A stretch of DNA of 64,000 bases from Minisyncoccia bacterium (GTDB lineage Bacteria > Patescibacteriota > Minisyncoccia > Phycocordibacterales > UBA918): positions 137,226 through 201,225 of the forward strand of contig JBKJIT010000004.1 in NCBI GenBank assembly GCA_046598345.1. The letters run 5' to 3'. Positions within the stretch are counted from its first letter, which is position 1. Every line of letters begins with the position of its first letter. Below, piece by piece: positions 22,645 to 39,123 of this stretch. The translations under genes and the position numbers were made by a program. The notes beneath the pieces were generated by a model, which searched no databases, was not told where the DNA came from, and saw nothing but the letters and a program-made list of their open reading frames with translations.

Positions 22645-23433
22645 TTAGTGATATTTTGGAGCACTAATGGCATCGCGCTCTATCTCGATGTCCGCAAAGT
22701 GTCCGGCTTGGTTAACCAGCACACTTCCCTGCTTCACCATCTCGAGCACTGCAAGGAATCCCACAATGAGTGTGGTACGCACTGATGCGTTTCCTGTGAA
22801 CTCCTTGAATGTAAATTTGAGTTGTCGTTCAACACGCTCGTGAAGACGGTCAATCATTTCTTCTAGGGACACGACTTTCCTCACCTGCACTTTTGGTTTT
22901 TCCACTTTCTTTGGAAGACGTGTAATAACTTCTTGAAGCGCACTCTGAAGAGCGGGTATCGTCGTAAAACTATCAGTCATAAAAAGGGGTGTCTCGTCGA
23001 GCACAAATGTGCGTGCTTGGAGGACTTGCTTCCCAAAAATCTGCTCAATCATGCGTCCGGCATTTCTGTAGATTTGGTATTTTCGAAGCCGTTCTTCGAG
23101 ATGCTCAATATTTTCTTCCTCTGCGTCGGTAAGTTCAAGTACCGGGAGGAGCGATTTTGATTTGATAAGAAGAAGTGTGGAAGCAAGCACAATAAAATCC
23201 GCCGTCTCACGGAGCATGCTTCGCTCCATGACCGCCACATACTGCATGTACTCGTCTGTTACCGCTGCGATAGAAATATCATTAACAAGAAGCTTTCGTT
23301 TCTCAATAAGATCAATGAGCAAATCTAACGGCCCCGAGTACACTTCGGTATTGATAGAGAATATGGTTGTCCTGTTGATCTCTGCTACTTCTGGCATGCA
23401 CTCATTATACATCCCGACACAACCACATAGCAC
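22645..23433 (-). CDS. scpA: Segregation and condensation protein A
   Basis: 'GPLDLLIDLIEKRKL' is the ScpA signature. The probable start is an internal Met (MPEVAE). Confidence 0.85.
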   Translation of the reverse strand: MLCGCVGMYNECMPEVAEINRTTIFSINTEVYSGPLDLLIDLIEKRKLLVNDISIAAVTDEYMQYVAVMERSMLRETADFIVLASTLLLIKSKSLLPVLELTDAEEENIEHLEERLRKYQIYRNAGRMIEQIFGKQVLQARTFVLDETPLFMTDSFTTIPALQSALQEVITRLPKKVEKPKVQVRKVVSLEEMIDRLHERVERQLKFTFKEFTGNASVRTTLIVGFLAVLEMVKQGSVLVNQAGHFADIEIERDAISAPKYH

Positions 23434-23456
23434 ATTCTAGATGCTATACATAAAAT

Positions 23457-23490
23457 AAAAGCACCTGGTCTGGTGCTTTTACTTTTTTAA
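23457..23490. terminator. Bidirectional terminator (aaaagcaccagaccaggtgctttt)
   Basis: Perfect 9-bp stem with T runs on both strands. It lies downstream of a 34-codon minus-strand ORF. Confidence 0.6.
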
Positions 23491-23500
23491 ATAGTTACGG

Positions 23501-23605
23501 TTACTGTCCTTTCTTTTGTGGGTTTCCTGAGGAAGTCTGATTCCCTTCTTTCTTTTGCGGATTATTTGATTGTCCTGGATTTGTTCCTGACTTTTTATCT
23601 TCCAT
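23501..23605 (-). CDS. Possible 34-aa low-complexity ORF (MEDKKSGTNPGQSNNPQKKEGNQTSSGNPQKKGQ)
   Basis: Manual translation. No Shine-Dalgarno sequence, but its own terminator follows. Confidence 0.15.
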   Translation of the reverse strand: MEDKKSGTNPGQSNNPQKKEGNQTSSGNPQKKGQ

Positions 23606-23739
23606 ATATCTTACAAATTAATTACTAAACCTCGGCCTCCCCAGTATGCCTAAAGAGACATTAAGTAATGATGAAGCTTGATGAAATTATCATAAGTATA
23701 AGAAAGGGCGCTCACTTAGACCTTCAGTTTTTATATTAG

Positions 23740-23871
23740 TTACCAGCAAAACTCCGAATATATGACACCAGCGTAGGCTCGTTCAATTGCTTGTTTAATA
23801 TACGGAATAGTATTTTCTGGAAGAGTATTGATGGGAAACCATTGTAAGTCATCACACTTGTTTGGCTCCAT
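23740..23871 (-). CDS. 43-aa ORF with strong RBS; resembles a Nudix hydrolase C-terminal tail (possible gene remnant)
   Basis: AGGAG lies 11 nt upstream of the ATG. The peptide MEPNKCDDLQWFPINTLPENTIPYIKQAIERAYAGVIYSEFCW resembles the MutT tail 'EWMSLVGLNADDFPPANEPVIAKL'. Confidence 0.3.
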   Translation of the reverse strand: MEPNKCDDLQWFPINTLPENTIPYIKQAIERAYAGVIYSEFCW

Positions 23872-23962
23872 CCTAATTATTTCTCCTCAAAAGAAGAATA
23901 TTGTCCTCTTTTCTAAAGAGTAAATATAGCGAAGGTATAAGTAACGGTCTTAATACAGGAAA

Positions 23963-24460
23963 TTATATTTGTATTTTAAAGTATCTTTGATGCCCGTATT
24001 CTGATTCCTGCTCGTAGGTCCCCACTATTCTCTCTGCGTAATTTTTTGCGATCTTGTCCGCGTAGCCATTTCCTGTAGCAGCATGACGCGTTAGGAATTT
24101 GTACCCACGTTTGCGTGCTTCGTGTTCAAGTATATCCATAAGTTTGGCCACATATCCCTTGCCTTGCTCATCAGGCTGGATCTCAGTCGTGTCTATGTAC
24201 GCAGCATCTGGTACTGATTCATCAGGAATTGTATACGTAAAACCAACAATTTTCTCACCCTTCTTAAGTAGTAAGACGATATTCTCTGCGTTCTCAAAAT
24301 TTTTCTTAAGGTATTCTGTTTCAAAGCTCTTTCCTGGAAAGCACAATTCTTCCAATTCAAGGATTTCTTTTTCAACAGTCTCCCACGTTTGAAATGAGGG
24401 ATCAAAAAAAGTTACACTCACTTCTGGCGTTGGCTCATAAGAATTTGGACTTTCATTCAT
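23963..24460 (-). CDS. GNAT family N-acetyltransferase
   Basis: 'IVGFTYTI...EQGKGYVAKLMDILEHEARKRGYKF' is the acetyl-CoA binding motif A region. The start is placed at MNESP. Confidence 0.8.
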   Translation of the reverse strand: MNESPNSYEPTPEVSVTFFDPSFQTWETVEKEILELEELCFPGKSFETEYLKKNFENAENIVLLLKKGEKIVGFTYTIPDESVPDAAYIDTTEIQPDEQGKGYVAKLMDILEHEARKRGYKFLTRHAATGNGYADKIAKNYAERIVGTYEQESEYGHQRYFKIQI

Positions 24461-24506
24461 ACAAAAAGTATACCAGGATAATTCGAGGTAGGCGTGGTGT
24501 AAGCTT

Positions 24507-24893
24507 CTATTCCTGTATGATGGATAAAATGTTGCTCGCAGGATCTTTAAACCAAGCGATGTCAGGACCGTTGCCACTTGCTTTGCCACGATAAATTCCC
24601 TTTTCGTCTGCTGTCATCACTGTATTATCATAGCGCTCTAGTAGGATTCCTTTGGACTTTAATATGTCTGTACTTTCATTAATATCGTCAACAATAAAGT
24701 TTAGAACCGTGAAGGTTGCGGGAGTGTGGTCGTCTTTTTGGTACAAAAACACAGAGTGACCATTTGACCATTTAATGTTGAGTCCTTCCTTCGTCTTAGA
24801 TACAGAAAGACCCAAAACGGCTGTGTAGAAGTTTAAGGATGTGTCTAGATCATTGACTGAGTAACTGCTAAATACTGAATTATTTTTAAACAT
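24507..24893 (-). CDS. VOC/glyoxalase-bleomycin resistance family protein
   Basis: 128 aa: 'LNFYTAVLGL' ... 'AWFKDPASNILSIIQ'. Confidence 0.75.
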   Translation of the reverse strand: MFKNNSVFSSYSVNDLDTSLNFYTAVLGLSVSKTKEGLNIKWSNGHSVFLYQKDDHTPATFTVLNFIVDDINESTDILKSKGILLERYDNTVMTADEKGIYRGKASGNGPDIAWFKDPASNILSIIQE

Positions 24894-25123
24894 ACGTCAT
24901 ACTAGCATCCACTTAGTGAAGCTGACGTGAGTTATGAGAAAGCGTCAAGATGTTAGAGTAAAATTTCATTTAGTTGAATAGTCCCTAATAGATTTTTTGC
25001 GTTTGCGGAGAGCGATCCAGTTTGTTCCATTTTGCAAGCTAAGAAAATCTAATCGCATCAAATTTACTTTATTGAAGTAACGGAATCTCTTTCAAAAAAA
25101 TCTTCTGCTGCCGAGTTTTCTTA

Positions 25124-25360
25124 CTATTTTCGAGTACCGTCACGTTTAAAGAATGTCCATACGTAGTATTTTTCAACTTTCTCTCGTGCCCATGGCGTTT
25201 TGCGCAAAAAAGTGAGACTTGAATGTGTACTTGGCGTTTCTATAAAGCACTTAATTTTTATTTTCTTCCCCAGCTCATCCCAGCCATACTGAGCCACCAG
25301 TTCTTCAATAATGGTTTTCAGCGTGACTCCATGTAACGGGTTATTTTTCTGTGGTGTCAT
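25124..25360 (-). CDS. DUF2132 (VF530-like) small protein
   Basis: 'NPLHGVTLKTIIEELVAQYGWDELG...PSTHSSLTFLRKTPWAREKVEKYY' matches the DUF2132 consensus. Confidence 0.7.
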   Translation of the reverse strand: MTPQKNNPLHGVTLKTIIEELVAQYGWDELGKKIKIKCFIETPSTHSSLTFLRKTPWAREKVEKYYVWTFFKRDGTRK

Positions 25361-25398
25361 TGAGATGTATATGTGTTCCTAAAGTATTGTCGGATATA

Positions 25399-25896
25399 TT
25401 AACGCAATGTACTTAAGAACGTGTTAAGTTCATTTGGTGATTTAAATCTCTTTACATGTGTGGCGCCACTCTCTGCTAATGCACCTTCGATTCTCGGTCG
25501 CTCTCCACGAGTTAGGACAAGCCAAAGAAAACTCCAACTAAATTTTTCTTGAGCATCCTCATGTAGTTCTGGTCTGCTCTTTTTACGATGCTGCACCCAG
25601 CGCTTAACGAGTTGAAGTGCACAACGAACACCTGAGTAGTCGAGGTATAACACTATATCAGCAGCCTTAAGCCGATCTGACATTTTCTCGTCTACATATC
25701 CTTCAATAATCCATTCGTCTTTTTTAATCAATTCAGCATGTGTTTTGAGGTATTCAGCTTCTGGTATTTCCTCCCAGTTCCCTTTCCAAAAAAGCTGGTC
25801 CATATGAAAAAGTGGCAATCCAGTTTTCTCAGCAATGGTTCTTGAAATTGTACTTTTCCCAGAAGCACTTATTCCGGCGATAGCGATTTTTTTCAT
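25399..25896 (-). CDS. P-loop NTPase, topology-modulation/adenylate-kinase-like (FlaR-type)
   Basis: Walker A 'AGISASGKST' within 165 aa. Confidence 0.75.
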   Translation of the reverse strand: MKKIAIAGISASGKSTISRTIAEKTGLPLFHMDQLFWKGNWEEIPEAEYLKTHAELIKKDEWIIEGYVDEKMSDRLKAADIVLYLDYSGVRCALQLVKRWVQHRKKSRPELHEDAQEKFSWSFLWLVLTRGERPRIEGALAESGATHVKRFKSPNELNTFLSTLR

Positions 25897-25897
25897 T

Positions 25898-26014
25898 TCA
25901 ACTTTCTAACAAATCTTGGGTAATCCCACGACCTGAAGCTTCTTCCCTAAGTTTTTCACCTGTTAATTCACTTTGTATCGCCAATAATCTTTTTTCTATT
26001 TCGTTTTTTCTCAT
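25898..26014 (-). CDS. Possible 38-aa ORF (MRKNEIEKRLLAIQSELTGEKLREEASGRGITQDLLES), translationally coupled between pepA and the P-loop NTPase
   Basis: The ATG sits 3 nt after the pepA stop codon (TAAtgcATG). Its own stop is 1 nt before the NTPase ATG (TGAaATG). Confidence 0.25.
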   Translation of the reverse strand: MRKNEIEKRLLAIQSELTGEKLREEASGRGITQDLLES

Positions 26015-30083: not shown

Positions 30084-31229
30084 TCAGTAATACGCGTCGT
30101 GGTTCCCTGTTCCCGTATGTCGGTTGCAGAGAAGTTCCGGACGCTCACGGAAAAGTTCCACAGTTTTTCGTATCTTAAGGATGTATATTTGGTTCTCTTG
30201 ATTTTTGTTGTGAAGAACCAGGTCGCCGAACTTCCCCAGAATGTTGATGGGTCGTGCGGGTCCTCCATTGTACGAAGAGGCGATGTACTCTATCTGGAGC
30301 ATTTGGTCCGAAAAGACCCTTTCCCTTAGCTTTTTCGGAATACGCGTAAGGTCGTGGTCGAACAGCAAAGCAGCAGCCTTGAGCGAATTGAACGAGTGAA
30401 ATGCCCCTTCCACAAAATCGTGGATGAGTCTCGCTTTCGGATATTTCACCGGTAGCATGTTGTACGTCGGTCGAGTGAACTGCATGTCGCCAAGGGCAAC
30501 AGCAGAACTTTTCGAGTATTTGTATGCTTGATCGCGCATAAATGCAACGCGAGCAAGCACTTCCCCGACAAGCACATGCAAAGGCTCATTTCTAAAGCGT
30601 TCATGGTCAATGTGCTCTACGATGAAAATAAGGAGCAGCAACTCTGAGATGGTTGCATCGCTCACGAGCACCGTCGGGTTTAGCAATGAACGTACGTCGA
30701 GTTCACGCAATTCCTTGAGTGCTGCGTGAATCCGATTGTCGAGGATTGCCTTACCGTAACAACGGACATCGTTTACATTGAGTCCTTCATTAACTCCCGT
30801 AAAAACCTCCTCTTGCAATGGTGTTGATGCTCGACCACGCTTGAGTGCGTATGCACGGTACCCAACCGGTTCAAGAATACTGAACTGAGTTGCGTATCCG
30901 TTCATTTGACCTCTCGAATCGCGCTTACATGCAATTGTGAAGCCTGGGGTCGTGGACTCGCAGGTTGCAGTGTTGAATCGAATGAACTCAAGTGGCTCAC
31001 CCCGATGATGTACAGCAAGAATGCCATGGATCTGGCGTTCAATAGTGCACATCATTTTGCGTTTCTTTTGCTCACAGATCTTCACTTCTTCAGATCCGGC
31101 AATGAACGATGGGTCGGAAAGTACTTCTCGCGCAATATCGGCGAGGAGCACATCCAGTGGCATAGCGCGTGGCTCTACATGCAAAATGCACGCGAGACCA
31201 AATATGATCACTCCGCATACAATTTTCAT
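30084..31229 (-). CDS. Hypothetical secreted protein (signal peptide; C-terminal 'SSYNGGPARP')
   Basis: 381 aa with an N-terminal hydrophobic signal. There is an 'ES...YNGG' spacing, but it is too long for a canonical SLT domain. Confidence 0.45.
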   Translation of the reverse strand: MKIVCGVIIFGLACILHVEPRAMPLDVLLADIAREVLSDPSFIAGSEEVKICEQKKRKMMCTIERQIHGILAVHHRGEPLEFIRFNTATCESTTPGFTIACKRDSRGQMNGYATQFSILEPVGYRAYALKRGRASTPLQEEVFTGVNEGLNVNDVRCYGKAILDNRIHAALKELRELDVRSLLNPTVLVSDATISELLLLIFIVEHIDHERFRNEPLHVLVGEVLARVAFMRDQAYKYSKSSAVALGDMQFTRPTYNMLPVKYPKARLIHDFVEGAFHSFNSLKAAALLFDHDLTRIPKKLRERVFSDQMLQIEYIASSYNGGPARPINILGKFGDLVLHNKNQENQIYILKIRKTVELFRERPELLCNRHTGTGNHDAYY

Positions 31230-31575
31230 AGAACACCTCCACAGTTGAAAATCAATTGAGGATACCTACTCTAACCCAATAATGGGTCATGAAGTATGAA
31301 TGAGCAAGAACCAAAAGTGCAAATTGAAAAAACGGGGGCTGTCACCCCCGTTTGCGCCATGAACATTTTGTCGTTCGGTGGCAGTCGTTCGCACGCAATG
31401 AAAAGAATTGTCGTGCACAGCATTGCGATAAAAACTCTCATAGCACTTGTCATGGCCATCCTCCAGACAGTGAGTTTTTTGGATACTAGAATAAGTATGA
31501 CATTCTCTGTCTCAAGGGTTTGGATCGAAGTGCATAACTTGTATTTGCATCTCGTTTCACCTACTATCCATAGTC

Positions 31576-32586
31576 ATGAGTAAGAAACGCGAAGCCGTTA
31601 TCTTAGGAAGGCTCCTCCAAAAGATCGCTCCCAAAATTGGAGCGAAGGTTATACTCGAACCCGAATGGGAAATGGCGGGACGTATCGAGTTTAAGTCCGG
31701 AAAGAAATCATATTTTCGCTACAACACCGTCGATCTGAATCCAATAGGATCCTCAGACATTGCGAAGGATAAGGATTACGCGAACTTTTTCATACATACG
31801 CTCGGATATCCAATTATCCCAGGGAGCAAAACATTTTTCTCTGATGCGTGGGCTGACGCGATCAGGGCAAAGAAGCGAAAGACTGATGACGCGTACGCGT
31901 ATGCAGCGAAGCTCGGCTTCCCTGTAGTGGTAAAGCCGAACAGTGGAAGTCGTGGCACAGGTGTGGCATTTGTGAAAACTAAGGCAGAATTCTATAAAGC
32001 AATGCGATTTATATTTTCGCGCGATAGAGTGGGTCTTATACAAAAACCAGTTATTGGAAAAGATTATCGCATTGTAGTTTTGGACAATGAAATCATTTCT
32101 GCGTATGAGCGTGTGCCCCTCAGTGTTATTGGCGATGGAAGAACTACAGTCCTGGGGCTTTTAAAGCGAAAGCAGAGGCAGTTTGAAAATGAACATCGAG
32201 ATACACAGATTAAGTTCGACGATCCACGTATACAGATCAAGCTTTCAAGACAGGCGCTCACTCTCGATTCCGTTTTAAAAAAGAGTCAGCATATTTTCGT
32301 GCTCGACAATGCCAATCTCTCTACGGGGGGTGATTCAGTTGATGTGACTGAATTTGTACACGCATCCTTTAAAAGAATTGCGGTGGCGTTAACAAAGGAC
32401 ATGGGACTTAGATTTTGTGGCGTTGACCTCATTATCGATGGGGACATCAGTGAAGCAGCAGAAACGTATTGGGTTTTGGAGATTAATGCTGCGCCGGGTC
32501 TTGATCACTATGCTAAATCTGGAAAGAAACAGGAAGCCATTGTTGAGGCACTCTATCTTAAGGTGCTACAAAGTTTAGATACATGA
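31576..32586 (+). CDS. ATP-grasp family ligase (RimK/cyanophycin-synthetase-like)
   Basis: 'LGFPVVVKPNSGSRGTGV', 'DYRIVVLD' and 'WVLEINAAPGL' are ATP-grasp motifs. Confidence 0.7.
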   Translation: MSKKREAVILGRLLQKIAPKIGAKVILEPEWEMAGRIEFKSGKKSYFRYNTVDLNPIGSSDIAKDKDYANFFIHTLGYPIIPGSKTFFSDAWADAIRAKKRKTDDAYAYAAKLGFPVVVKPNSGSRGTGVAFVKTKAEFYKAMRFIFSRDRVGLIQKPVIGKDYRIVVLDNEIISAYERVPLSVIGDGRTTVLGLLKRKQRQFENEHRDTQIKFDDPRIQIKLSRQALTLDSVLKKSQHIFVLDNANLSTGGDSVDVTEFVHASFKRIAVALTKDMGLRFCGVDLIIDGDISEAAETYWVLEINAAPGLDHYAKSGKKQEAIVEALYLKVLQSLDT

Positions 32587-33041
32587 ATCCAGATTCCGCT
32601 ACAGAATCGTTACAGGCAATTCTTAAAAAGTGTGATGTGTTGATTGGGTACGCTCCCCTCCCGGATGAGCCTGATTTCTTTAAGGCTCCAGTACTTTCAC
32701 ATTTTCATGCGTCGCTTTACAGAATTCCGGCGGACAAGACTAACGATCCGTTTGAGTATGCGGAGGAATTGGTGCAGCGGTTTGCTAACTCCCATCCATG
32801 CCTCGTTATTCCAGGTCAGAAGTTTGATGCACAAGGTTCACGGCACGGACGAGGAGGTGGTTGGTACGATCGGCTACTCTGCAAGCTTTCCCGTGAGTGG
32901 GTACGTATCGGTGTATGTTTTGCACAGCAATATAGTGTCTCCCGTCTTCCGCGCGAACAATGGGACGAGAGTATGGATTATCTCCTCCTCTACACAGAAG
33001 AAAAAGACGAATGGGAGATTAAAAGTGCAGAACCTATTTAG
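32583..33041 (+). CDS. 5-formyltetrahydrofolate cyclo-ligase family protein
   Basis: 'GSRHGRGGGWYDR' matches the GxGxGYYD motif. The ATGA overlap with the upstream ATP-grasp gene indicates translational coupling. Confidence 0.7.
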   Translation: MNPDSATESLQAILKKCDVLIGYAPLPDEPDFFKAPVLSHFHASLYRIPADKTNDPFEYAEELVQRFANSHPCLVIPGQKFDAQGSRHGRGGGWYDRLLCKLSREWVRIGVCFAQQYSVSRLPREQWDESMDYLLLYTEEKDEWEIKSAEPI

Positions 33042-34743
33042 CAGATTTAGCACCTGGAACGAGGGGTAGTTCGATATGGAATCGTGACCCTTTCCCTTCC
33101 CCATCGGATTCTGCCCACACGCGGCCTTTCATATCGGTAATCATTTTCTTTGCAACAAAGAGTCCGAGACCGGTCCCGGTTACGTTTACATTATTTGCAT
33201 TCTTTGCGCGCACAAATTTCTCAAACACTTCCTCCTGCGTTTCTTTACTCATGCCGACGCCAGTATCTTCAATAGTGATAAACATTTTTTTCTTCTTTAC
33301 ATCATCGTGTGCTCGTACGGTTATGGTTCCCTTCTGTGTATACTTCATTGAATTATCAAGAAGATTCATGATGATCTGTCGTGTCTTTCCTACGTCAGCG
33401 TTTACCGAGCAACTTCCCTTACAATCTGAGCGGAAGAGCATTATGAGACCTTTCTTTATTGCTACCGTACGCATTTCATCCACAATTCGTTCCGCCATAT
33501 CTTTCAAGTTAAAATCCCCAATTTCGTACTTCATATTGCCTGCTTCGATGCGTGAGACATTGAGATAGTCTTCAACAGAAAGCGCCATGTACTTCGCAGA
33601 GTCGCCAATCTTTTCAACAACCTCAGTTGCTTTCTTGGGAAGTTTGCCATATGAACCTTCAGACAGCATCGAGGCGTAACCGCGAATTGAGGTTAAGGGA
33701 CTTCGAAGTTGATGCGAAGCGATAGACACGAATTCAGATTTCATTTTATCAAGCTCTTTAAGGCGGGTATTGACGCCTTGAAGATTCTCCGCAAGTTTTG
33801 CAATTTGTTCGCGTTGCAAAACCTCTCTATTGACACTTCGTACAAGAAAGTAACCACCAATGCAGGAAAGTAAGAAAGTAACACCTACAAGCATACGAGT
33901 AGTTGTTGATTCTACAAAGAAAAATTCGGAACCGATGAGTAGGATAAGAGAAGCAACAAGTGCCTGTGCTGCAACCAATTTAATATTGAAAGCTTTGAAT
34001 CTCACTATCAAATATGACAAAGTTCCAATAAAGGCCAGCATTCCCAACGGACCAATAAGGTTGATTTCGTAAATCCCAGTTTCTTCTGCGTAATAGAATG
34101 ATGCAAAGAATATGCCTACGAACACAAAACTGCCCAATAGAAGATAAAATGATGAAAGAGTCCGCGAATCGCGATCATTGCCGTACTGTTTCAATACAAG
34201 TAGTGACCAACTCAAAAAGACTAAAACAGCAAGAAATTGAAGTCCATAAAAATAGTCCCACAACATACCGGTCTGACCTGTACATGTATCGAGTTCAACT
34301 CCAGAAAGATTCAGTTCACTCGGAAGAAGTAATATTATAGGTAGGCCCAATAACAAACCTACAGATTTTCCCCAAAATGGAATGTCTTTCCCTTTCACGA
34401 ATAAATAGACGAAGTAAAATGTGGAAATTAAGATCAAAAAATGCAAGAGAAGTGATATTGAAAATGTGAAGTACACAAGTCCTGCTGGCATAACGATCCA
34501 CTGCACCACCTCGTTAAATATAAAAATTGCAAAAATTGTAGTTAGAAAGAAAAGAACTTTACTGAGTGATGAAAACCCATTTTTAATTAGAACAAATATT
34601 CCTATCACTAACGAAATTATAATTATTGAAAAATAGGAATAGTAAAGCAGATCAGGAGCAAAGCTTAAATTCATAAAGCCCAAAAAAGTGGCTTCTCCAT
34701 CAATACATTGAACTAATTCAGGTAAGATCATACTTTGTTGCAA
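33034..34743 (-). CDS. Sensor histidine kinase with polytopic N-terminal membrane domain (no cognate response regulator adjacent)
   Basis: HisKA 'VSIASHQLRSPLTSIRG' and HATPase_c 'IEDTGVGM...GTGLGL'. About 8 N-terminal TM helices. Confidence 0.85.
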   Translation of the reverse strand: MQQSMILPELVQCIDGEATFLGFMNLSFAPDLLYYSYFSIIIISLVIGIFVLIKNGFSSLSKVLFFLTTIFAIFIFNEVVQWIVMPAGLVYFTFSISLLLHFLILISTFYFVYLFVKGKDIPFWGKSVGLLLGLPIILLLPSELNLSGVELDTCTGQTGMLWDYFYGLQFLAVLVFLSWSLLVLKQYGNDRDSRTLSSFYLLLGSFVFVGIFFASFYYAEETGIYEINLIGPLGMLAFIGTLSYLIVRFKAFNIKLVAAQALVASLILLIGSEFFFVESTTTRMLVGVTFLLSCIGGYFLVRSVNREVLQREQIAKLAENLQGVNTRLKELDKMKSEFVSIASHQLRSPLTSIRGYASMLSEGSYGKLPKKATEVVEKIGDSAKYMALSVEDYLNVSRIEAGNMKYEIGDFNLKDMAERIVDEMRTVAIKKGLIMLFRSDCKGSCSVNADVGKTRQIIMNLLDNSMKYTQKGTITVRAHDDVKKKKMFITIEDTGVGMSKETQEEVFEKFVRAKNANNVNVTGTGLGLFVAKKMITDMKGRVWAESDGEGKGSRFHIELPLVPGAKSAK

Positions 34744-34779
34744 AGTGCTATTTGGCTCACGTAACTAGTACCATTTAAC

Positions 34780-34932
34780 TTATTGATCTTCAGTTACTTC
34801 CTCCGCGATGTAGTCCTCCGAGTATGACTGCTCATAACTCTGCGTAATAAAGCTTTTATAAAATAGCGCAGAGACTGAGATGATTGTTAACATCACAGAA
34901 AAAAGAAGTAATATCTTTGATCTTCTGTCCAT
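34780..34932 (-). CDS. Possible small membrane protein (MDRRSKILLLFSVMLTIISVSALFYKSF...)
   Basis: Single TM helix, immediately upstream of the kinase gene. Confidence 0.3.
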   Translation of the reverse strand: MDRRSKILLLFSVMLTIISVSALFYKSFITQSYEQSYSEDYIAEEVTEDQ

Positions 34933-34984
34933 GTTGGAATTGTAGCATGCAGTCGCTGCAGCCATTTGATAATCTGTGCAAATT

Positions 34985-36268
34985 CTACAGCCATCCCCAT
35001 TCTTGAAGTCGTGGCAGGTCATGATTCTCTACTCGGACACCAATGTCTTTTCTGTAATGCATTTTTGGAATATGTATATGGCGAACGCGATTGTATGCAA
35101 TGTCACGCGCCTCAGAAATCGTCTTACCAAAAGCAGTCACGTACAAGACTGCTCCATGTTTACCTGTCCAATAATAGGAATCGCCAATCTTTGAACCTTC
35201 CTCAAAATGAATATGCTCGAAGTCCTCAATGGAAAGTTTCTCTGTATTCAAATTTATTTGAATATGAGAAATAGAATTTCTAGAATTTTCAGGTTGATAC
35301 GGGAACGGAGGAACTACAATAGACACAACAACCCCGAATCCTTTTTTGCACCCAAGTGGATATTGCTTACCAGTTGCAAGTGCATCGAGAAAATCCGCCC
35401 AAGGAGACTGATGAAGTATGACTTGGAGCTCAGTAGAGGGATTTCCGAAACGTGGAGTTGCTTCCAACGGAACAGCTCTGTCTTTTGTTACCATGCAATT
35501 TATATCAATGTCACCTCGAAAGTCAATTTTCTGGAGATGTGGTTTAAGTTTATCTAATACTTCCGTAAAAAGACGACACTCCTCTACTGTGTACCACAAG
35601 ACCGTCCCCATTTCAGGCGTAAGAGGTCCCGTATCTCCATCGTGAAGCATCTTATGTTCATGATTAATTTCAATTGGCCCAACCCAATCATTCCCATTAA
35701 AATATCTTGCAATACCCACCTCAATACCATTAGCAAACTGTTGAATATGTATGAGCTTTGCTTCCCTTTTCTTGTAGTTTTCGAGTACCCTGAGTACATC
35801 CGAGCCATCCTCCCTCTTTCCAATGAAATTGAGACAGCTTTGATGGGTATCCTGTTTTACAACCCATTTTCCCCCATTCTTCTTTACAAACGCAATTGCT
35901 TCATCCGCATGACTAAAATTGTATGAAGGAAGAATTTCCATACCTGATTGCTGAGCAATTTCCTGAAAATACAGTCGTTCTGTTTCGAGCGAATCTCCAC
36001 CTTCACTGCCACCCACTACTTTATATCCATCACGTCTAAGTAGATCTTGATCTTTCCCAAAACCTACATCATCAAAAATAATAATTCCGTTTCCTTCCTT
36101 TACCCAATCCAATTCCCCTTTCCAGTCTTCTGTTTTTGGAACAATCCCATCGAGACACTTTTTCCATTCTTGTTCATGAATATATAGCTTTACATCATTC
36201 TTCTCTGCAACAAGCTTTTGACACAGGGCAGACCCGATAAGTACTCCAGAGACGAATAAGATTCTCAT
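34985..36268 (-). CDS. PurD-like ATP-grasp protein (phosphoribosylamine--glycine ligase family, divergent N-domain)
   Basis: The C-terminus 'VLYVTAFGKTISEARDIAYNRVRHIHIPKMHYRKDIG' matches the PurD C-domain (AY...I.F.G..YR.DIG). The N-terminus lacks the 'GGREHA' motif. Confidence 0.55.
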   Translation of the reverse strand: MRILFVSGVLIGSALCQKLVAEKNDVKLYIHEQEWKKCLDGIVPKTEDWKGELDWVKEGNGIIIFDDVGFGKDQDLLRRDGYKVVGGSEGGDSLETERLYFQEIAQQSGMEILPSYNFSHADEAIAFVKKNGGKWVVKQDTHQSCLNFIGKREDGSDVLRVLENYKKREAKLIHIQQFANGIEVGIARYFNGNDWVGPIEINHEHKMLHDGDTGPLTPEMGTVLWYTVEECRLFTEVLDKLKPHLQKIDFRGDIDINCMVTKDRAVPLEATPRFGNPSTELQVILHQSPWADFLDALATGKQYPLGCKKGFGVVVSIVVPPFPYQPENSRNSISHIQINLNTEKLSIEDFEHIHFEEGSKIGDSYYWTGKHGAVLYVTAFGKTISEARDIAYNRVRHIHIPKMHYRKDIGVRVENHDLPRLQEWGWL

Positions 36269-36286
36269 AATAGTAGATTGCCCTGG

Positions 36287-37354
36287 TTAAGAAGCTAGCA
36301 CAATACCTATTACAGTAACTGCAATAATTAATAATTCCAAACAAATCTTAGTTACACTTGTCCTCGTTATAGGCAAGGCCTCAGCTGTTAGCGTAAAGCC
36401 CAATACAACAACGTGTTTCATCCCCCTTTGTTCAATCTGTTTTCTATACCACCCTAAAAGTAAATCGAGGATATAAACTAAGAACACATTCGCTCCAATT
36501 ACCACACCAATATACGCTGGGTTTAAACCAGTAAGACCAAAATATTCAAAATAAAAGATTAACATTCCAATAATTTCAACAATAATTATTGGGAACAAAA
36601 AACGACGAATTCTTTTCTTCCATGCAAGCAAGAACTCTACACGTTCCTTTTTATTAGTAAGCAAGGATCTTCCCCCTGCGGCAAAACCAATCCAATAGAA
36701 TGGAAGCAATGCGTACACCCCGATAGTTTCTGTTGCAAGTCCTTTTGATTCAGTAAATATGAAATGTAAAAGCAAACTGTAGATTGTAGAAAGACCCACA
36801 AACATACACATATGCTTGTAATAAAGAACACCACTGCCTTGCTCCTCTCGGTTTAACAGATATTCAAATAGAATAAGTCCCAGTGTCGCCAGTAGTACTC
36901 CAAAAACCCAATAAAGACCTAATTCACCCAAGGTACTAAACTCTTCGAAAAAGTAACCAAGGACTGAATATGCGATGATTGCTGCAATTGGTGTTACACC
37001 CATCCAGGCTGCCACTAAGGTTGAATTCGCTTCTTCTGCATAACATGCGAAATAGTGATACAGCATTTGAATAACCAATATTCCGCCTGCCATCATTGCG
37101 ATGCCTTCCCACCAAAATAATTCTAAAATTGAAGCAAAGAGTATGGAAAATGATTCTATCTTCCCTGTGAAAATTCCGTAGAATATAACAAGTAAACTGA
37201 GGGTAAGCCCTAAAATAGTTCCAAATACGGAGCTTACAATCCATGCGTGGCGGTGCTTACCTTCGTAGTAATCGGTAACTATAAAACGATCAGATACAAC
37301 CATAATGGCTGTACAGATAGAACTCAACATAGTGGCAATAAGTGCGGTGGTCAT
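36287..37354 (-). CDS. Polytopic membrane protein of unknown function (about 10 TM helices)
   Basis: Hydropathy pattern only. Confidence 0.55.
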   Translation of the reverse strand: MTTALIATMLSSICTAIMVVSDRFIVTDYYEGKHRHAWIVSSVFGTILGLTLSLLVIFYGIFTGKIESFSILFASILELFWWEGIAMMAGGILVIQMLYHYFACYAEEANSTLVAAWMGVTPIAAIIAYSVLGYFFEEFSTLGELGLYWVFGVLLATLGLILFEYLLNREEQGSGVLYYKHMCMFVGLSTIYSLLLHFIFTESKGLATETIGVYALLPFYWIGFAAGGRSLLTNKKERVEFLLAWKKRIRRFLFPIIIVEIIGMLIFYFEYFGLTGLNPAYIGVVIGANVFLVYILDLLLGWYRKQIEQRGMKHVVVLGFTLTAEALPITRTSVTKICLELLIIAVTVIGIVLAS

Positions 37355-37366
37355 TCTGACTATATA

Positions 37367-37849
37367 TTACATAAAAAACAGGACGACAAGTGGTGCAAGG
37401 AGCCACCAGAAGAATCGCTCTTCTGGGGCAAAGAGTGCTTGTATCGGCGAGCCGGGAGTGAACACATCAGTAACTGGAAGTGCATGATAGCTAAACGCCA
37501 TAACGAGTGCAGTGGCGAGAAGTGCAAGTACAATCTTTTTTCCAAATTGAGCAAAGGGCGTTTCTCTGTATTCAACCGGAATAATTCGTCGAAGAAGAAT
37601 CGTGCCAAGGACAGTGAACGCAGCAAAGAACAAGATCATGATGAGGGCGTTTCCTTTTTCGCTACTTGCTTTTAGGAGTGCGTCAAAATACGGAAACTTT
37701 AAAGTAATGACAAGAGCAATATAGAGCGCTAGTATCGCATTAATAATTGATTGTGTTCCGCGCGCCATACCGAAAAGAAGCATGACACCAAAAACCGCTA
37801 TCAAAAATAACGACTCACTGAGCATTCCAAGTAGGAAGCTAACATCCAT
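37367..37849 (-). CDS. cvpA: CvpA (colicin V production) family membrane protein
   Basis: 160 aa, 4 TM helices, CvpA-like 'LGMLSESLFLIAVFGVMLLFG...'. TATAAT lies 6 nt upstream of the ATG, suggesting a leaderless transcript. Confidence 0.7.
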   Translation of the reverse strand: MDVSFLLGMLSESLFLIAVFGVMLLFGMARGTQSIINAILALYIALVITLKFPYFDALLKASSEKGNALIMILFFAAFTVLGTILLRRIIPVEYRETPFAQFGKKIVLALLATALVMAFSYHALPVTDVFTPGSPIQALFAPEERFFWWLLAPLVVLFFM

Positions 37850-38005: not shown

Positions 38006-38052
38006 TTGTAGCAAAAGAAAAAGTCTCCCTGCGGAGACTTTTTCTTTTGCTA
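38006..38052. terminator. dnaJ terminator: 21-bp perfect stem (GUAGCAAAAGAAAAAGUCUCC / GGAGACUUUUUCUUUUGCUAC). A second 8-bp hairpin lies at about 37955-37980
   Basis: Read directly. Confidence 0.65.
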
Positions 38053-39123
38053 CAAACCTTCTTTTTGGAGATCTTCTACCAATTTTCTTGCAGTTCGGGA
38101 TAACTTCTTAGGAATGTCGACGTGGATTTTTACCAAGAAATCACCACGCCCTCCATCTGAAGGCACTCCACGTTCACGAATACGAAGCATTTCTCCGTGC
38201 TTTACTCCTTCTGGAATTTTAATTTTTACGATGCCATCGAGTGTCTCAACTCCGTATGTATTCCCAAGTAATGCGTCAGTGAGCTTAACTGGAAGATTGC
38301 TGAGGAGATTTTTTCCGTCTCGAACAATTGTTTGGTGTGGAGCAACATGGACTTTAATATACAAATCTCCCGGCACTCCTCCCTGTACTGCTTCGCCTCG
38401 TCCTGTCATACGAATCATCTCACCGTGCTCAATTCCTGCAGGAATATTGATATCAATCTGATCCTCTACTTTACGAATACCCTTACCATGACAATCAGGA
38501 CATTTTACCTTTGGCATCTTGCCGAGGGCTCCACACGCTGCGCACTCACGCACTGTAGTAAAGTTCCCCAAGATACTTTGGCGAGTTTCTCGAACTTTTC
38601 CATTACCATTACATACACTGCAGGTCGTCATTTCAGTTCCCTTTTCCGCGCCAGTCCCTGTGCATGTAGAACAGGTATTGTTTTTCATGAGCTTAAGCGA
38701 GCGCTTACTACCGAAAACAGATTCTTTGAATGCAAGTTCGATATCAACGGAAATATCATTGCCGCGTGATTGGCGCTTTCCACTTCGTGCACCTCCTCCG
38801 AAAATATCTCCAAAGTTTTCAAAGATGTCATTGAGGTCAAATTCAACATTTTGAGCATTGAATCCACCCTGAAAACCACCCCAACCAAATGGCCCCTGGT
38901 TTGGGCTTCCTCCACCGCTGTATGAACGGCCATATGCGTCGTATTCCGCGCGTTTCTTGTCGTCACTTAAAATCGAATACGCCTCACTGATTTCCTTGAA
39001 TTTAACCTCATCACCAGTCTTTTTGTCTGGGTGATACTTAGTTGCAAGCTTACGAAAAGCCCGCTTTACCTCGTCTTTTGAGGCTGTTTTTGTAATCCCT
39101 AGAATAGTGTAGTAATCCTTCAT
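38050..39123 (-). CDS. dnaJ: Chaperone DnaJ
   Basis: J-domain 'YHPDK', G/F region and four CxxCxGxG zinc-finger repeats. Confidence 0.92.
   Translation of the reverse strand: MKDYYTILGITKTASKDEVKRAFRKLATKYHPDKKTGDEVKFKEISEAYSILSDDKKRAEYDAYGRSYSGGGSPNQGPFGWGGFQGGFNAQNVEFDLNDIFENFGDIFGGGARSGKRQSRGNDISVDIELAFKESVFGSKRSLKLMKNNTCSTCTGTGAEKGTEMTTCSVCNGNGKVRETRQSILGNFTTVRECAACGALGKMPKVKCPDCHGKGIRKVEDQIDINIPAGIEHGEMIRMTGRGEAVQGGVPGDLYIKVHVAPHQTIVRDGKNLLSNLPVKLTDALLGNTYGVETLDGIVKIKIPEGVKHGEMLRIRERGVPSDGGRGDFLVKIHVDIPKKLSRTARKLVEDLQKEGL

Follow-up and report, generated by a model that had tools for sequence, protein, structure and literature searches.

Two independent modules side by side in a Minisyncoccia genome: a PurD-like candidate amine ligase with its permease and kinase, and a putatively folate-linked ATP-grasp pair

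The 64-kb stretch of DNA analysed here, from contig JBKJIT010000004.1 of a Minisyncoccia bacterium (hereafter the window), carries between positions 31576 and 37849 two different ATP-grasp enzymes in a closely packed region that a first-pass annotation, made from the letters alone, had treated as one uncharacterised cluster of six genes. The region combines two independent modules that are adjacent only in this lineage. Module A (31576-33041, plus strand) is formed by a stand-alone ATP-grasp ligase of 336 aa (ATP-grasp336) and a protein resembling 5-formyltetrahydrofolate cyclo-ligase (5-FCL), and module B (33034-37849, minus strand) has as its core, all of it present in the window, a divergent permease, a PurD-like ATP-grasp ligase, the remnant of a small membrane-anchored protein (c3) and a polytopic sensor histidine kinase. 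The explanation of the whole that we favour, at a probability of about one half, is that these modules are functionally independent, that module B provides a ligase acylating a polyamine or agmatine-type amine together with its permease and kinase, and that module A is a folate-linked pair.

Two modules with separate gene neighbourhoods

To describe the surroundings of the PurD-like gene, 80 genome loci around homologues of 45-62% identity were compared after clustering of their open reading frames (ORFs); nearly all come from Patescibacteria, including Minisyncoccus archaeiphilus (L047), and neighbour counts refer to the 59 of these loci with enough flank, a neighbour being a gene within four genes. 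The pair of ATP-grasp336 and 5-FCL lies near a PurD-like gene in only 2/81 loci, the source contig included, a co-occurrence that equals the chance expectation for stretches of 20 kb when genomes measure 0.6-1 Mb; the other locus is L048, where ATP-grasp336, 5-FCL and a CofE-like gene are located about 8 kb from the kinase and PurD-like genes. The closest long-contig relative by PurD-like identity (L165, 68%) shows the order DnaJ, 158 aa, 357 aa, PurD-like, 52 aa, kinase, TrpRS, AspRS and M17, the same as in the window except that a block of about 3 kb, 30084-33041, is missing and the kinase runs straight into TrpRS. This block, which in the window lies between the kinase and trpS and is richer in guanine plus cytosine (GC) than its surroundings, contains the hypothetical protein hyp381, a 95-aa ORF, ATP-grasp336 and the 5-FCL-like gene; hyp381 finds no family match in Pfam (best, SLT at E=0.06) and is itself GC-rich relative to the window (z-score +1.7 for GC and +2.5 for GC at third codon positions). 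In the metagenome-assembled genome (MAG) closest by housekeeping genes (DnaK 90%, AspRS 87%), the ATP-grasp (70% identity) and 5-FCL pair is found on another contig with unrelated neighbours. Because L165 is devoid of the block and this MAG has the pair elsewhere, the two ATP-grasp genes are adjacent here through a lineage-specific insertion. The single cluster of the first-pass annotation does not survive these comparisons; conservation of neighbours in relatives, which it had regarded as decisive, holds for the core of permease, PurD-like ligase, c3 and kinase, and fails for the module A pair and for the gene of a small protein with four transmembrane (TM) segments at the upstream end of module B.

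A group of 5-FCL, GATase, one further gene and ATP-grasp also adjoins trpS in another locus (L168).

The PurD-like protein and its distance from GAR synthetase

The second ATP-grasp had been described as PurD-like with a non-canonical N-domain, in agreement with what profiles and structure return. The ORF matches GARS_A and GARS_C in Pfam, its N-domain is unalignable to PurD by sequence, and the score against the PurD equivalog TIGR00877 is 110.2 bits, with a cut-off of 288 and a match limited to residues 75-413. The AlphaFold 2 model of the protein (predicted local distance difference test, pLDDT, 93.6) retrieves exclusively PurD structures among the top 15 Foldseek matches in the PDB (TM 0.72-0.78, with TM ~0.77 at E 1e-31; 18-21% identity; E 1e-31 to 1e-26), which points to the four-domain fold of glycinamide ribonucleotide (GAR) synthetase. 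The family is large, since 241 of the 1.84 billion cluster representatives scanned match it at E<=1e-30, that is, at least 241 clusters at 50% identity, and its motifs were surveyed in 191 family sequences and in the best 150 of the 241 cluster representatives.

In canonical PurD, the glycine-rich loop that follows the first strand of the N-domain is GGREHA. The window protein has MRILFVSGVLIGSA at this loop, where the family consensus is L-F-x-S-x-E-L (S7-x-E9-L10); this motif, GPxTxEMGT and ExTxRFGxP are invariant in the 191 members and correspond in PurD to GGREHA, GPNTGGMG and ExNxRxGDPE, respectively, none of which occurs in the best 150 of the 241 cluster representatives (the relaxed pattern GG[RK]EH[AT] included). 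The family equivalent of the RxGDPE/ExN elements reads E269-x-T271-x-R273-F-G275-x-P277-S/A, with Thr271 invariant in 191/191 sequences, the Asp variable and the Glu changed to Ser or Ala. Mapping of the ligands of A. aeolicus PurD through the HMMER alignment indicates that, among the glycine-binding residues Asp212, Arg287 and Glu292 (PMC8880213), Arg287 is kept as R273, Asp212 becomes an invariant Glu204, and Glu292 becomes Ser/Ala278. Residues that bind ATP and Mg are either retained or exchanged conservatively (K103 to R98, K143 to K138, E192 to E183, K214 to K206 and E100 to E95, together with E269), and R98, K138, E183, K206, E95, E269 and R273 vary little or not at all across the 191 sequences. 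The PurD-like protein thus resembles PurD in its fold, its GARS_A and GARS_C domains, its ATP/Mg ligands and its catalytic Arg, and differs from it in all three motifs and in two of the three glycine ligands; the alignments show an intact ATP-grasp site with altered substrate sites, the PurD features for phosphoribosylamine and glycine being lost.

That this altered site is in use is indicated by inteins, which at least nine family representatives carry, as in P0371, with PLEFT|C...N|CRFGYP; insertion within the ExTxRFG motif argues for a functional and important active site. The proteins P0371, P0380, P0381, P0384, P0407 and P0448, of 740-1120 aa, have one or two inteins with Hint and LAGLIDADG domains, the insertion site being inside ExT|xRFG and, in P0384, also near GPxTxEMGT.

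The genomic context differs from that of purD as well, being made up of the DMT permease, the sensor kinase and polyamine genes and never of pur genes. Homologues of PurL, PurQ, PurM and PurE are found neither in the 80 PurD-like loci nor in the 64-kb window; the pur clusters of the Candidate Phyla Radiation (CPR) present in a second set of 80 loci have no PurD-like gene, and a search with the family hidden Markov model finds no canonical PurD within 6 kb of CPR pur clusters. The PurD-like gene is also present in M. archaeiphilus (L047), whose genome is reported to be without nucleotide biosynthesis (PMC12281837). The first-pass annotation had admitted that the gene could be simply purD, accompanied in the genome by the rest of the pathway; the tests for PurD come out negative except for the fold, and both the window and the 80 loci are free of the four pur genes searched for. 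By its sequence, the protein is a member of a separate family of GAR synthetase paralogues, and an identity as purD is very unlikely.

Genes that accompany the PurD-like gene

Within four genes of PurD-like (n=59), a histidine kinase is found in 43 loci, a DMT permease in 42, a c3 protein in 33, an AdoMetDC-family decarboxylase in 17 and a regulator consisting only of a REC domain in 15. Gene order and orientation vary among the loci, and the genes stay associated in spite of inversions and of various insertions between them. The core of module B is conserved in Patescibacteria as a whole.

The protein that had been noted as a large membrane protein with 10 TM segments is located as described, and its identity can be refined. 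It has no direct Pfam match, PF00892 included, even at E<=10; by hhalign, it aligns to the c2 permease family with a probability of 97.1% and an E value of 5e-11 over 272 columns, and a c2 representative in turn hits EamA in Pfam (2e-11) and TIGR00950 (1e-7), which identifies the protein, at the profile level, as a divergent DMT/EamA permease. The kinase, described as a polytopic sensor kinase with no response regulator nearby, contains HisKA (1.8e-16) and HATPase_c (1.6e-25) domains in Pfam, and its N-terminal half has no match in that database; no REC domain is detected by hmmsearch at E<=1 in the 64 kb, so this part of the description is confirmed. Alignments of at least 150 aa connect its sensor half (residues 1-320) with 61 of the 64 neighbouring kinases, which places the window kinase in one orthologous group travelling with the PurD-like gene, and adjacency is seen in both co-directional and divergent arrangements.

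The c3 family comprises TM-anchored proteins of 84-247 aa with about 10 Cys and about 20% Asp+Glu. In the window, the corresponding ORF retains the N-terminal TM anchor and an acidic tail, the Cys-rich ectodomain of its relatives being missing; tblastn of c3 members matches 34932-34834, and L165 has the 52-aa ORF at the c3 position. A small membrane protein had indeed been proposed here, although as an overlapping ORF of 80 aa, in place of which we find 50 aa beginning at 34932, after the PurD-like stop.

For the 4-TM protein, an assignment as CvpA is not supported. The match to Colicin_V (PF02674) has E=2.2 and 8.7 bits, with a cut-off of 29.3, its 222 homologues have no Pfam domain or consistent name, Colicin_V appears at E<=5 in just 2/35 of the homologues, and the gene is present in 9/80 PurD-like loci. 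As the CvpA identification fails, the suggestion that a pairing of PurD-like and CvpA is a repurposed remnant of a purF operon falls with it.

A possible link with polyamines

Polyamine genes stand beside the PurD-like gene in about 27 of the 80 loci, in the form of an AdoMetDC-family decarboxylase, a pyruvoyl-dependent arginine decarboxylase (PvlArgDC), an agmatinase or a SpeD-SpeE fusion. The AdoMetDC-family gene is present in 22 of the 80 loci and, in 20 of these 22, at no more than about 3 kb from PurD-like; in three loci, an agmatinase scoring above its equivalog cut-off separates PurD-like from the kinase, and two SpeD-SpeE fusions are directly upstream in L075. The same position is occupied by a non-orthologous decarboxylase in a 6-Mb Rhodospirillales chromosome (L008, 9349-13237), where the order is PvlArgDC, PurD-like and DMT. 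Where CPR homologues of SpeD are not accompanied by SpeE, they have proved to decarboxylate ornithine or arginine (PMC10407285). Acylation of polyamines by ATP-grasp enzymes has precedents, such as HsvC/HsvB of phevamine A (PMC6187163) and trypanothione/glutathionylspermidine synthetase (PMC2427367). These associations point to the PurD-like protein as probably an ATP-dependent ligase acylating a polyamine or an agmatine-type amine, and not a purine enzyme. The invariant acidic residues E9, D66, D67, D92 and E95, in place of the glycine-rich N-domain loop, would suit a cationic substrate.

In L008, an island of 38-48% GC in a background of 55-60%, consisting of PurD-like and the DMT permease, is preceded directly by the pyruvoyl arginine decarboxylase, which has the GC content of the host, and followed by a REC-only regulator.

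Rarer inserts near PurD-like are GNAT, SET and two families of methyltransferases. One of the methyltransferase families is PrmA/PRMT5-like by Pfam; the other we take to be GAMT-like from a motif, Pfam giving only generic methyltransferase matches and NCBIfam none.

The mechanism that we propose, in which the substrates, the direction of transport and the regulatory link are what we infer, would begin with the binding of ATP-Mg by the PurD-like protein and the formation of an acyl-phosphate on a carboxylate, which an amine would then attack. The amine would be a product of arginine or ornithine decarboxylation (agmatine, putrescine or a derived polyamine) and not phosphoribosylamine, and the product an N-acyl or aminoacyl polyamine-type amide. 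Transport of the amine or of the conjugate through the membrane may be the task of the DMT permease, and the membrane kinase, together in relatives with the c3 ectodomain protein, may sense or regulate the amide-forming process. Of the first-pass suggestion of an amide- or peptide-ligating surface-modification or small-molecule pathway, an amide-forming role on small molecules is plausible for the PurD-like protein; module A looks folate-linked, a matter of cofactor metabolism and not of surface modification.

With HsvC/HsvB and with glutathionylspermidine/trypanothione synthetase, the proposed reaction shares the ATP-dependent formation of an amide between a carboxylate and a (guanidino-)polyamine (PMC6187163, PMC2427367), as well as the pairing in one operon of an amine-making or amine-modifying enzyme with an ATP-grasp. 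It differs from them in that they lack both a DMT permease and a sensor kinase as partners and come from outside Patescibacteria, so the likeness is a functional analogy by type of reaction.

A bolder version of this proposal, which we hold only tentatively, would make PurD-like a Patescibacteria-wide ligase, with an active site targeted by inteins, that either makes a new aminoacyl- or acyl-polyamine (or agmatine) conjugate or tethers polyamines to a macromolecule, served by a dedicated permease, a sensor kinase and a Cys-rich protein, while ATP-grasp336 would separately be a missing folate-tail ligase acting with a CofE-type FolC2. If true, this would mean a new pathway for polyamine conjugates, at the heart of the envelope or host-interaction biology of these episymbionts and copied by phages into a portal-MuF virion protein.

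The ATP-grasp336 and 5-FCL-like pair

The other ATP-grasp had been called RimK/CphA-like, an opinion that the profiles support. In Pfam, ATP-grasp336 hits RimK and Dala_Dala_lig_C; in NCBIfam, it comes closest to cyanophycin synthetase (1.6e-47) and to GshAB (1.6e-44), in each case with a score far under the family cut-off. The best sequence matches in the PDB are GshAB 3ln7 (3.7e-30) and CphA structures. More than 3000 homologues of 60-70% identity occur across Patescibacteria, many of them named "cyanophycin synthetase" by PGAP. An identity as cyanophycin synthetase is improbable for the window protein, since with its 336 aa it is without the multi-domain architecture of CphA and scores 161.6 against TIGR02068, with a cut-off of 850, only the ATP-grasp G-domain region being aligned. 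The likeness to the CphA G-domain, the C-terminal domain of GshAB and N-acetylglutaminylglutamine synthetase (1e-47 to 1e-29) is over the ATP-grasp domain, which ligates an amino acid to a peptide alpha-carboxylate, whereas ATP-grasp336 is free of the M and N domains of CphA and of the GshA domain, scores about 5-fold under the cut-offs, and is surrounded by genes of CofE-like, DHFR, ThyA and 5-FCL-like proteins and not by cyanophycin or glutathione genes.

Translational coupling to the next ORF had been claimed, and the ATGA overlap between both ORFs is read directly in the sequence. The assignment of that next ORF to the 5-FCL family stands in part: Pfam 5-FTHF_cyc-lig (PF01812) matches at 5.7e-14 and 52.9 bits, over a cut-off of 27, but only along profile positions 121-184 of 186, and the 57.3 bits against TIGR02727 are below its equivalog cut-off of 84.9. 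MTHFS proteins of the PDB align to residues 72-135 only. The C-terminal third therefore resembles MTHFS, a GxGGGxYDR-type motif included, whereas the protein has 152 aa, compared with about 185-200 aa in MTHFS, and its N-terminal part is unaligned.

Neighbours of ATP-grasp336 were counted in 80 metagenome loci, 67 of them with enough flank, and a folate-linked neighbour is present in 42/67: a CofE-like ligase in 24 (23 within two genes), DHFR in 17, ThyA in 11 and 5-FCL-like in 10 (all within two genes). For the CofE-like neighbour, NCBIfam returns TIGR04132, "putative folate metabolism gamma-glutamate ligase", with an E value of 6.8e-64, and a CofE homologue of Chlamydia complements folC (PMC1971073). 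From these usual neighbours we infer that module A is a separate, very highly conserved pair of folate handling, this being the weaker of our two substrate assignments. By analogy with CofE and CofF in F420 synthesis, ATP-grasp336 may add or cap an amino acid on the folate glutamate tail beside a CofE-type ligase, or serve in folate salvage. As in the synthesis of the F420 tail and in the case of the chlamydial CofE-type FolC2, a CofE-family gamma-glutamyl ligase would be paired with an ATP-grasp; ATP-grasp336 differs in being only weakly similar to CofF (2e-6) and MptN (1e-12), and the window has no CofE-like gene.

PurL, PurQ, PurM and PurE are also found near ATP-grasp336 in some loci. In L125, L129, L136, L137, L141, L153, L156, L158 and L161, a CphA-like ATP-grasp directly adjoins a purL-purQ(-purE-purM) cluster, and such clusters in Patescibacteria contigs indicate that some members keep part of de novo purine synthesis.

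Alternative explanations

A single pathway, in which all six or seven genes contribute and both ATP-grasps act in sequence toward one surface-modification or small-molecule product, would be favoured by the tight packing of the genes, by the overlap between the ends of the 5-FCL-like and kinase genes, and by the locus (L048) with both groups within 8 kb. This explanation is highly improbable, as the 2/81 loci are what chance predicts, the modules converge from opposite strands, their juxtaposition is missing in the closest relatives, and each has its own, different conserved partners; synteny already contradicts it. Scarcely better placed is a divergent purD, acting in a purine pathway that is reduced or complemented by the host. 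The fold and the A and C domains do resemble PurD, the strong structural and sequence matches are to PurDs alone, homologues are named phosphoribosylamine-glycine ligase in JGI and in some NCBI records, and purL, purQ, purM and purE are carried by some Patescibacteria. We nevertheless consider it very unlikely in view of the score under the equivalog cut-off, the loss of the GGREHA loop, of RxGDPE and of two of the three glycine ligands (PMC8880213), the mutual absence of PurD-like and pur genes in both sets of 80 loci, the presence of the family in M. archaeiphilus with its reported lack of nucleotide synthesis (PMC12281837), and its occurrence within an island of low GC on a Rhodospirillales chromosome of 6 Mb, a genome in which an own purD would be expected.

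The association of PurD-like, permease and kinase might also descend from an ancestral gene order, in a section of these small genomes that rearranges slowly and runs from dnaK-dnaJ to trpS-aspS, with no coupling between kinase and ligase, since closer relatives have GrpE-DnaK-DnaJ upstream and TrpRS-AspRS-M17 downstream of the module. This seems rather unlikely, because the association is kept in distant loci devoid of the housekeeping flanks, tolerates different genes between the partners and has survived inversions, such as those with divergent kinase and PurD-like genes and with the permease and decarboxylase downstream (L037, L049, L058, L060 and L072); in addition, the permease, although not the kinase, follows PurD-like into the Rhodospirillales chromosome. 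The more serious rival for module B is that PurD-like modifies a macromolecule (protein, cell wall or DNA), attaching an amine or amino acid to carboxylates of protein or peptidoglycan in the manner of RimK, TTL-type or D-aspartate-type ligases. In its favour are the SET-domain, GNAT and PRMT-like genes that recur between PurD-like and the kinase, a PurD-like-SET fusion in one family representative (P0392), a phage protein of 1236 aa from IMG/VR with portal, PurD-like and Mu-F parts, an arrangement typical of virion-packaged enzymes, and the WalK-type cell-wall kinases among the best NCBIfam matches of the kinase. Such neighbours, however, are each present in just 2-7 loci, polyamines are also targets of GNAT and of guanidino/amine methyltransferases, decarboxylases of amino acids are the enzymes most often found nearby, and the partner that stays constant is a permease for small molecules; a macromolecular target is considerably less probable than a small amine.

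Several observations weigh against the preferred explanation of a polyamine- or agmatine-acylating module beside a folate-linked pair. The polyamine substrate is deduced from genes that flank the family elsewhere, in only about 27 of 80 loci, and in the window no decarboxylase, agmatinase or aminopropyltransferase adjoins the module. Position 9, which is Glu or Asp in 185/191 members, is Val or Ile in the window protein and its two closest homologues (Val in the window, codon 36242-36244), so the substrate of this subclade may differ from that of the rest of the family. The SET, GNAT, PRMT-like and GAMT-like neighbours, the SET fusion and the portal-MuF fusion fit protein modification equally well, and adjacency of the kinase could reflect inherited gene order more than function. 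As to module A, the 5-FCL-like protein is devoid of the N-terminal part of its family, which makes its activity uncertain, and neither CofE-like nor DHFR genes are present in the 64-kb window.

In the IMG/VR contig with the phage fusion (L162, 2256-5966), the ORF of 1236 aa consists of portal, PurD-like (residues 598-1018, 30% identical to the window protein) and Mu-F parts, and a related phage protein without the PurD-like insert is encoded at 5941-8391 of L163. Scanning of viral contigs with the family alignment returned no PurD-like relatives, and with the representative of the phage fusion, two loci.

Implications for annotation and biochemistry

Literature searches on purD, agmatine, polyamine and ATP-grasp in Patescibacteria found no description of either family. 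Judged by their sequences, both would be families of ATP-grasp carboxylate-amine ligases with predicted new substrates. Genomes of Patescibacteria routinely bear the labels "phosphoribosylamine-glycine ligase" and "cyanophycin synthetase"; for two families as widespread as these, neither label is likely to be right, and both distort the metabolic reconstruction of organisms thought to be without purine synthesis. The PurD-like family is a candidate polyamine-conjugating enzyme, with active-site inteins, a constant permease partner and recurrent kinase and polyamine genes, in a phylum with almost no biochemistry known, and ATP-grasp336 is a candidate partner for CofE-type folylpolyglutamate ligases. 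The module of PurD-like, permease and kinase is widespread, mis-annotated and experimentally tractable, and a cultured carrier of the PurD-like gene exists in Minisyncoccus archaeiphilus.

Gene map, transcription and base composition

The ORFs listed in the first-pass annotation are present where it had placed them, and the coordinates of the features, as called in the window, are collected in Table 1.

Table 1. Features of the region and its immediate surroundings, with the evidence for each assignment
Feature	Position	Strand	Basis
ATP-grasp336, stand-alone CphA-G-domain/GshB-like ATP-grasp ligase, 336 aa (module A)	31576..32586	+	Pfam, NCBIfam and PDB matches
5-formyl-THF (tetrahydrofolate) cyclo-ligase-like protein (5-FCL-like), N-terminally truncated, 152 aa (module A)	32583..33041	+	Pfam, TIGR02727, PDB
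Polytopic sensor histidine kinase, 569 aa, TTG start (module B)	33034..34743	-	HisKA + HATPase_c
c3-family remnant, 50 aa (module B)	34780..34932	-	tblastn of c3 members, direct reading of the sequence
PurD-like ATP-grasp ligase, 427 aa (core of module B)	34985..36268	-	GARS_A + GARS_C
Divergent DMT/EamA-type permease, 10 TM, 355 aa (partner of the PurD-like gene)	36287..37354	-	hhalign to c2 family
Small 4-TM membrane protein, family unknown, 160 aa (lineage-restricted companion)	37367..37849	-	Comparison of homologues and Pfam
Perfect hairpin, 20-bp stem, likely terminator between dnaJ and the 4-TM gene	38007..38054	n/a	Terminator scan
hyp381, hypothetical protein, 381 aa	30084..31229	-	No family match

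The minus-strand genes of module B are tightly spaced and begin after the hairpin, which is directly 3' of the dnaJ stop and is the strongest terminator-like structure in the 7 kb scanned; elsewhere in these 7 kb, counts of promoters and terminators do not exceed the shuffled expectation. The hairpin is likely to act as a terminator separating the dnaK-dnaJ unit from module B, which is probably a single transcription unit beginning after it. Scans of the window for tRNA and Rfam families gave no matches.

The impression that the stretch from the kinase to the membrane protein is AT-rich is borne out by calculation, the GC content of 33034-37849 being 39.8%, compared with 44.1% for the window, with gene z-scores of -2.1 for the kinase, -1.5 for PurD-like and -2.6 for the permease. 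The deviation is real but modest, and the contrast derives partly from the adjoining GC-richer block. The cassette of ligase and permease seems, from identities, to have a history different from that of its flanks, which may explain the lower GC of module B. Horizontal gene transfer is a possible explanation of this low GC, which we do not adopt: in its favour is the identity of the PurD-like protein, 47% in the relative closest by housekeeping genes compared with 57-70% in more distant ones, and against it are a GC deviation of only about 2 standard deviations and the membrane-rich nature of two of the three genes.

An ordinary EamA permease is present in the relative nearest in DnaK (90%), DnaJ (84%) and AspRS (87%), whose PurD-like protein is the one of 47% identity, and some of the more distant relatives have the same divergent type of permease as the window (compared loci L066, L002 and L003). 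A second stretch of the window, 23001-26000, is equally AT-rich, with about 39% GC.

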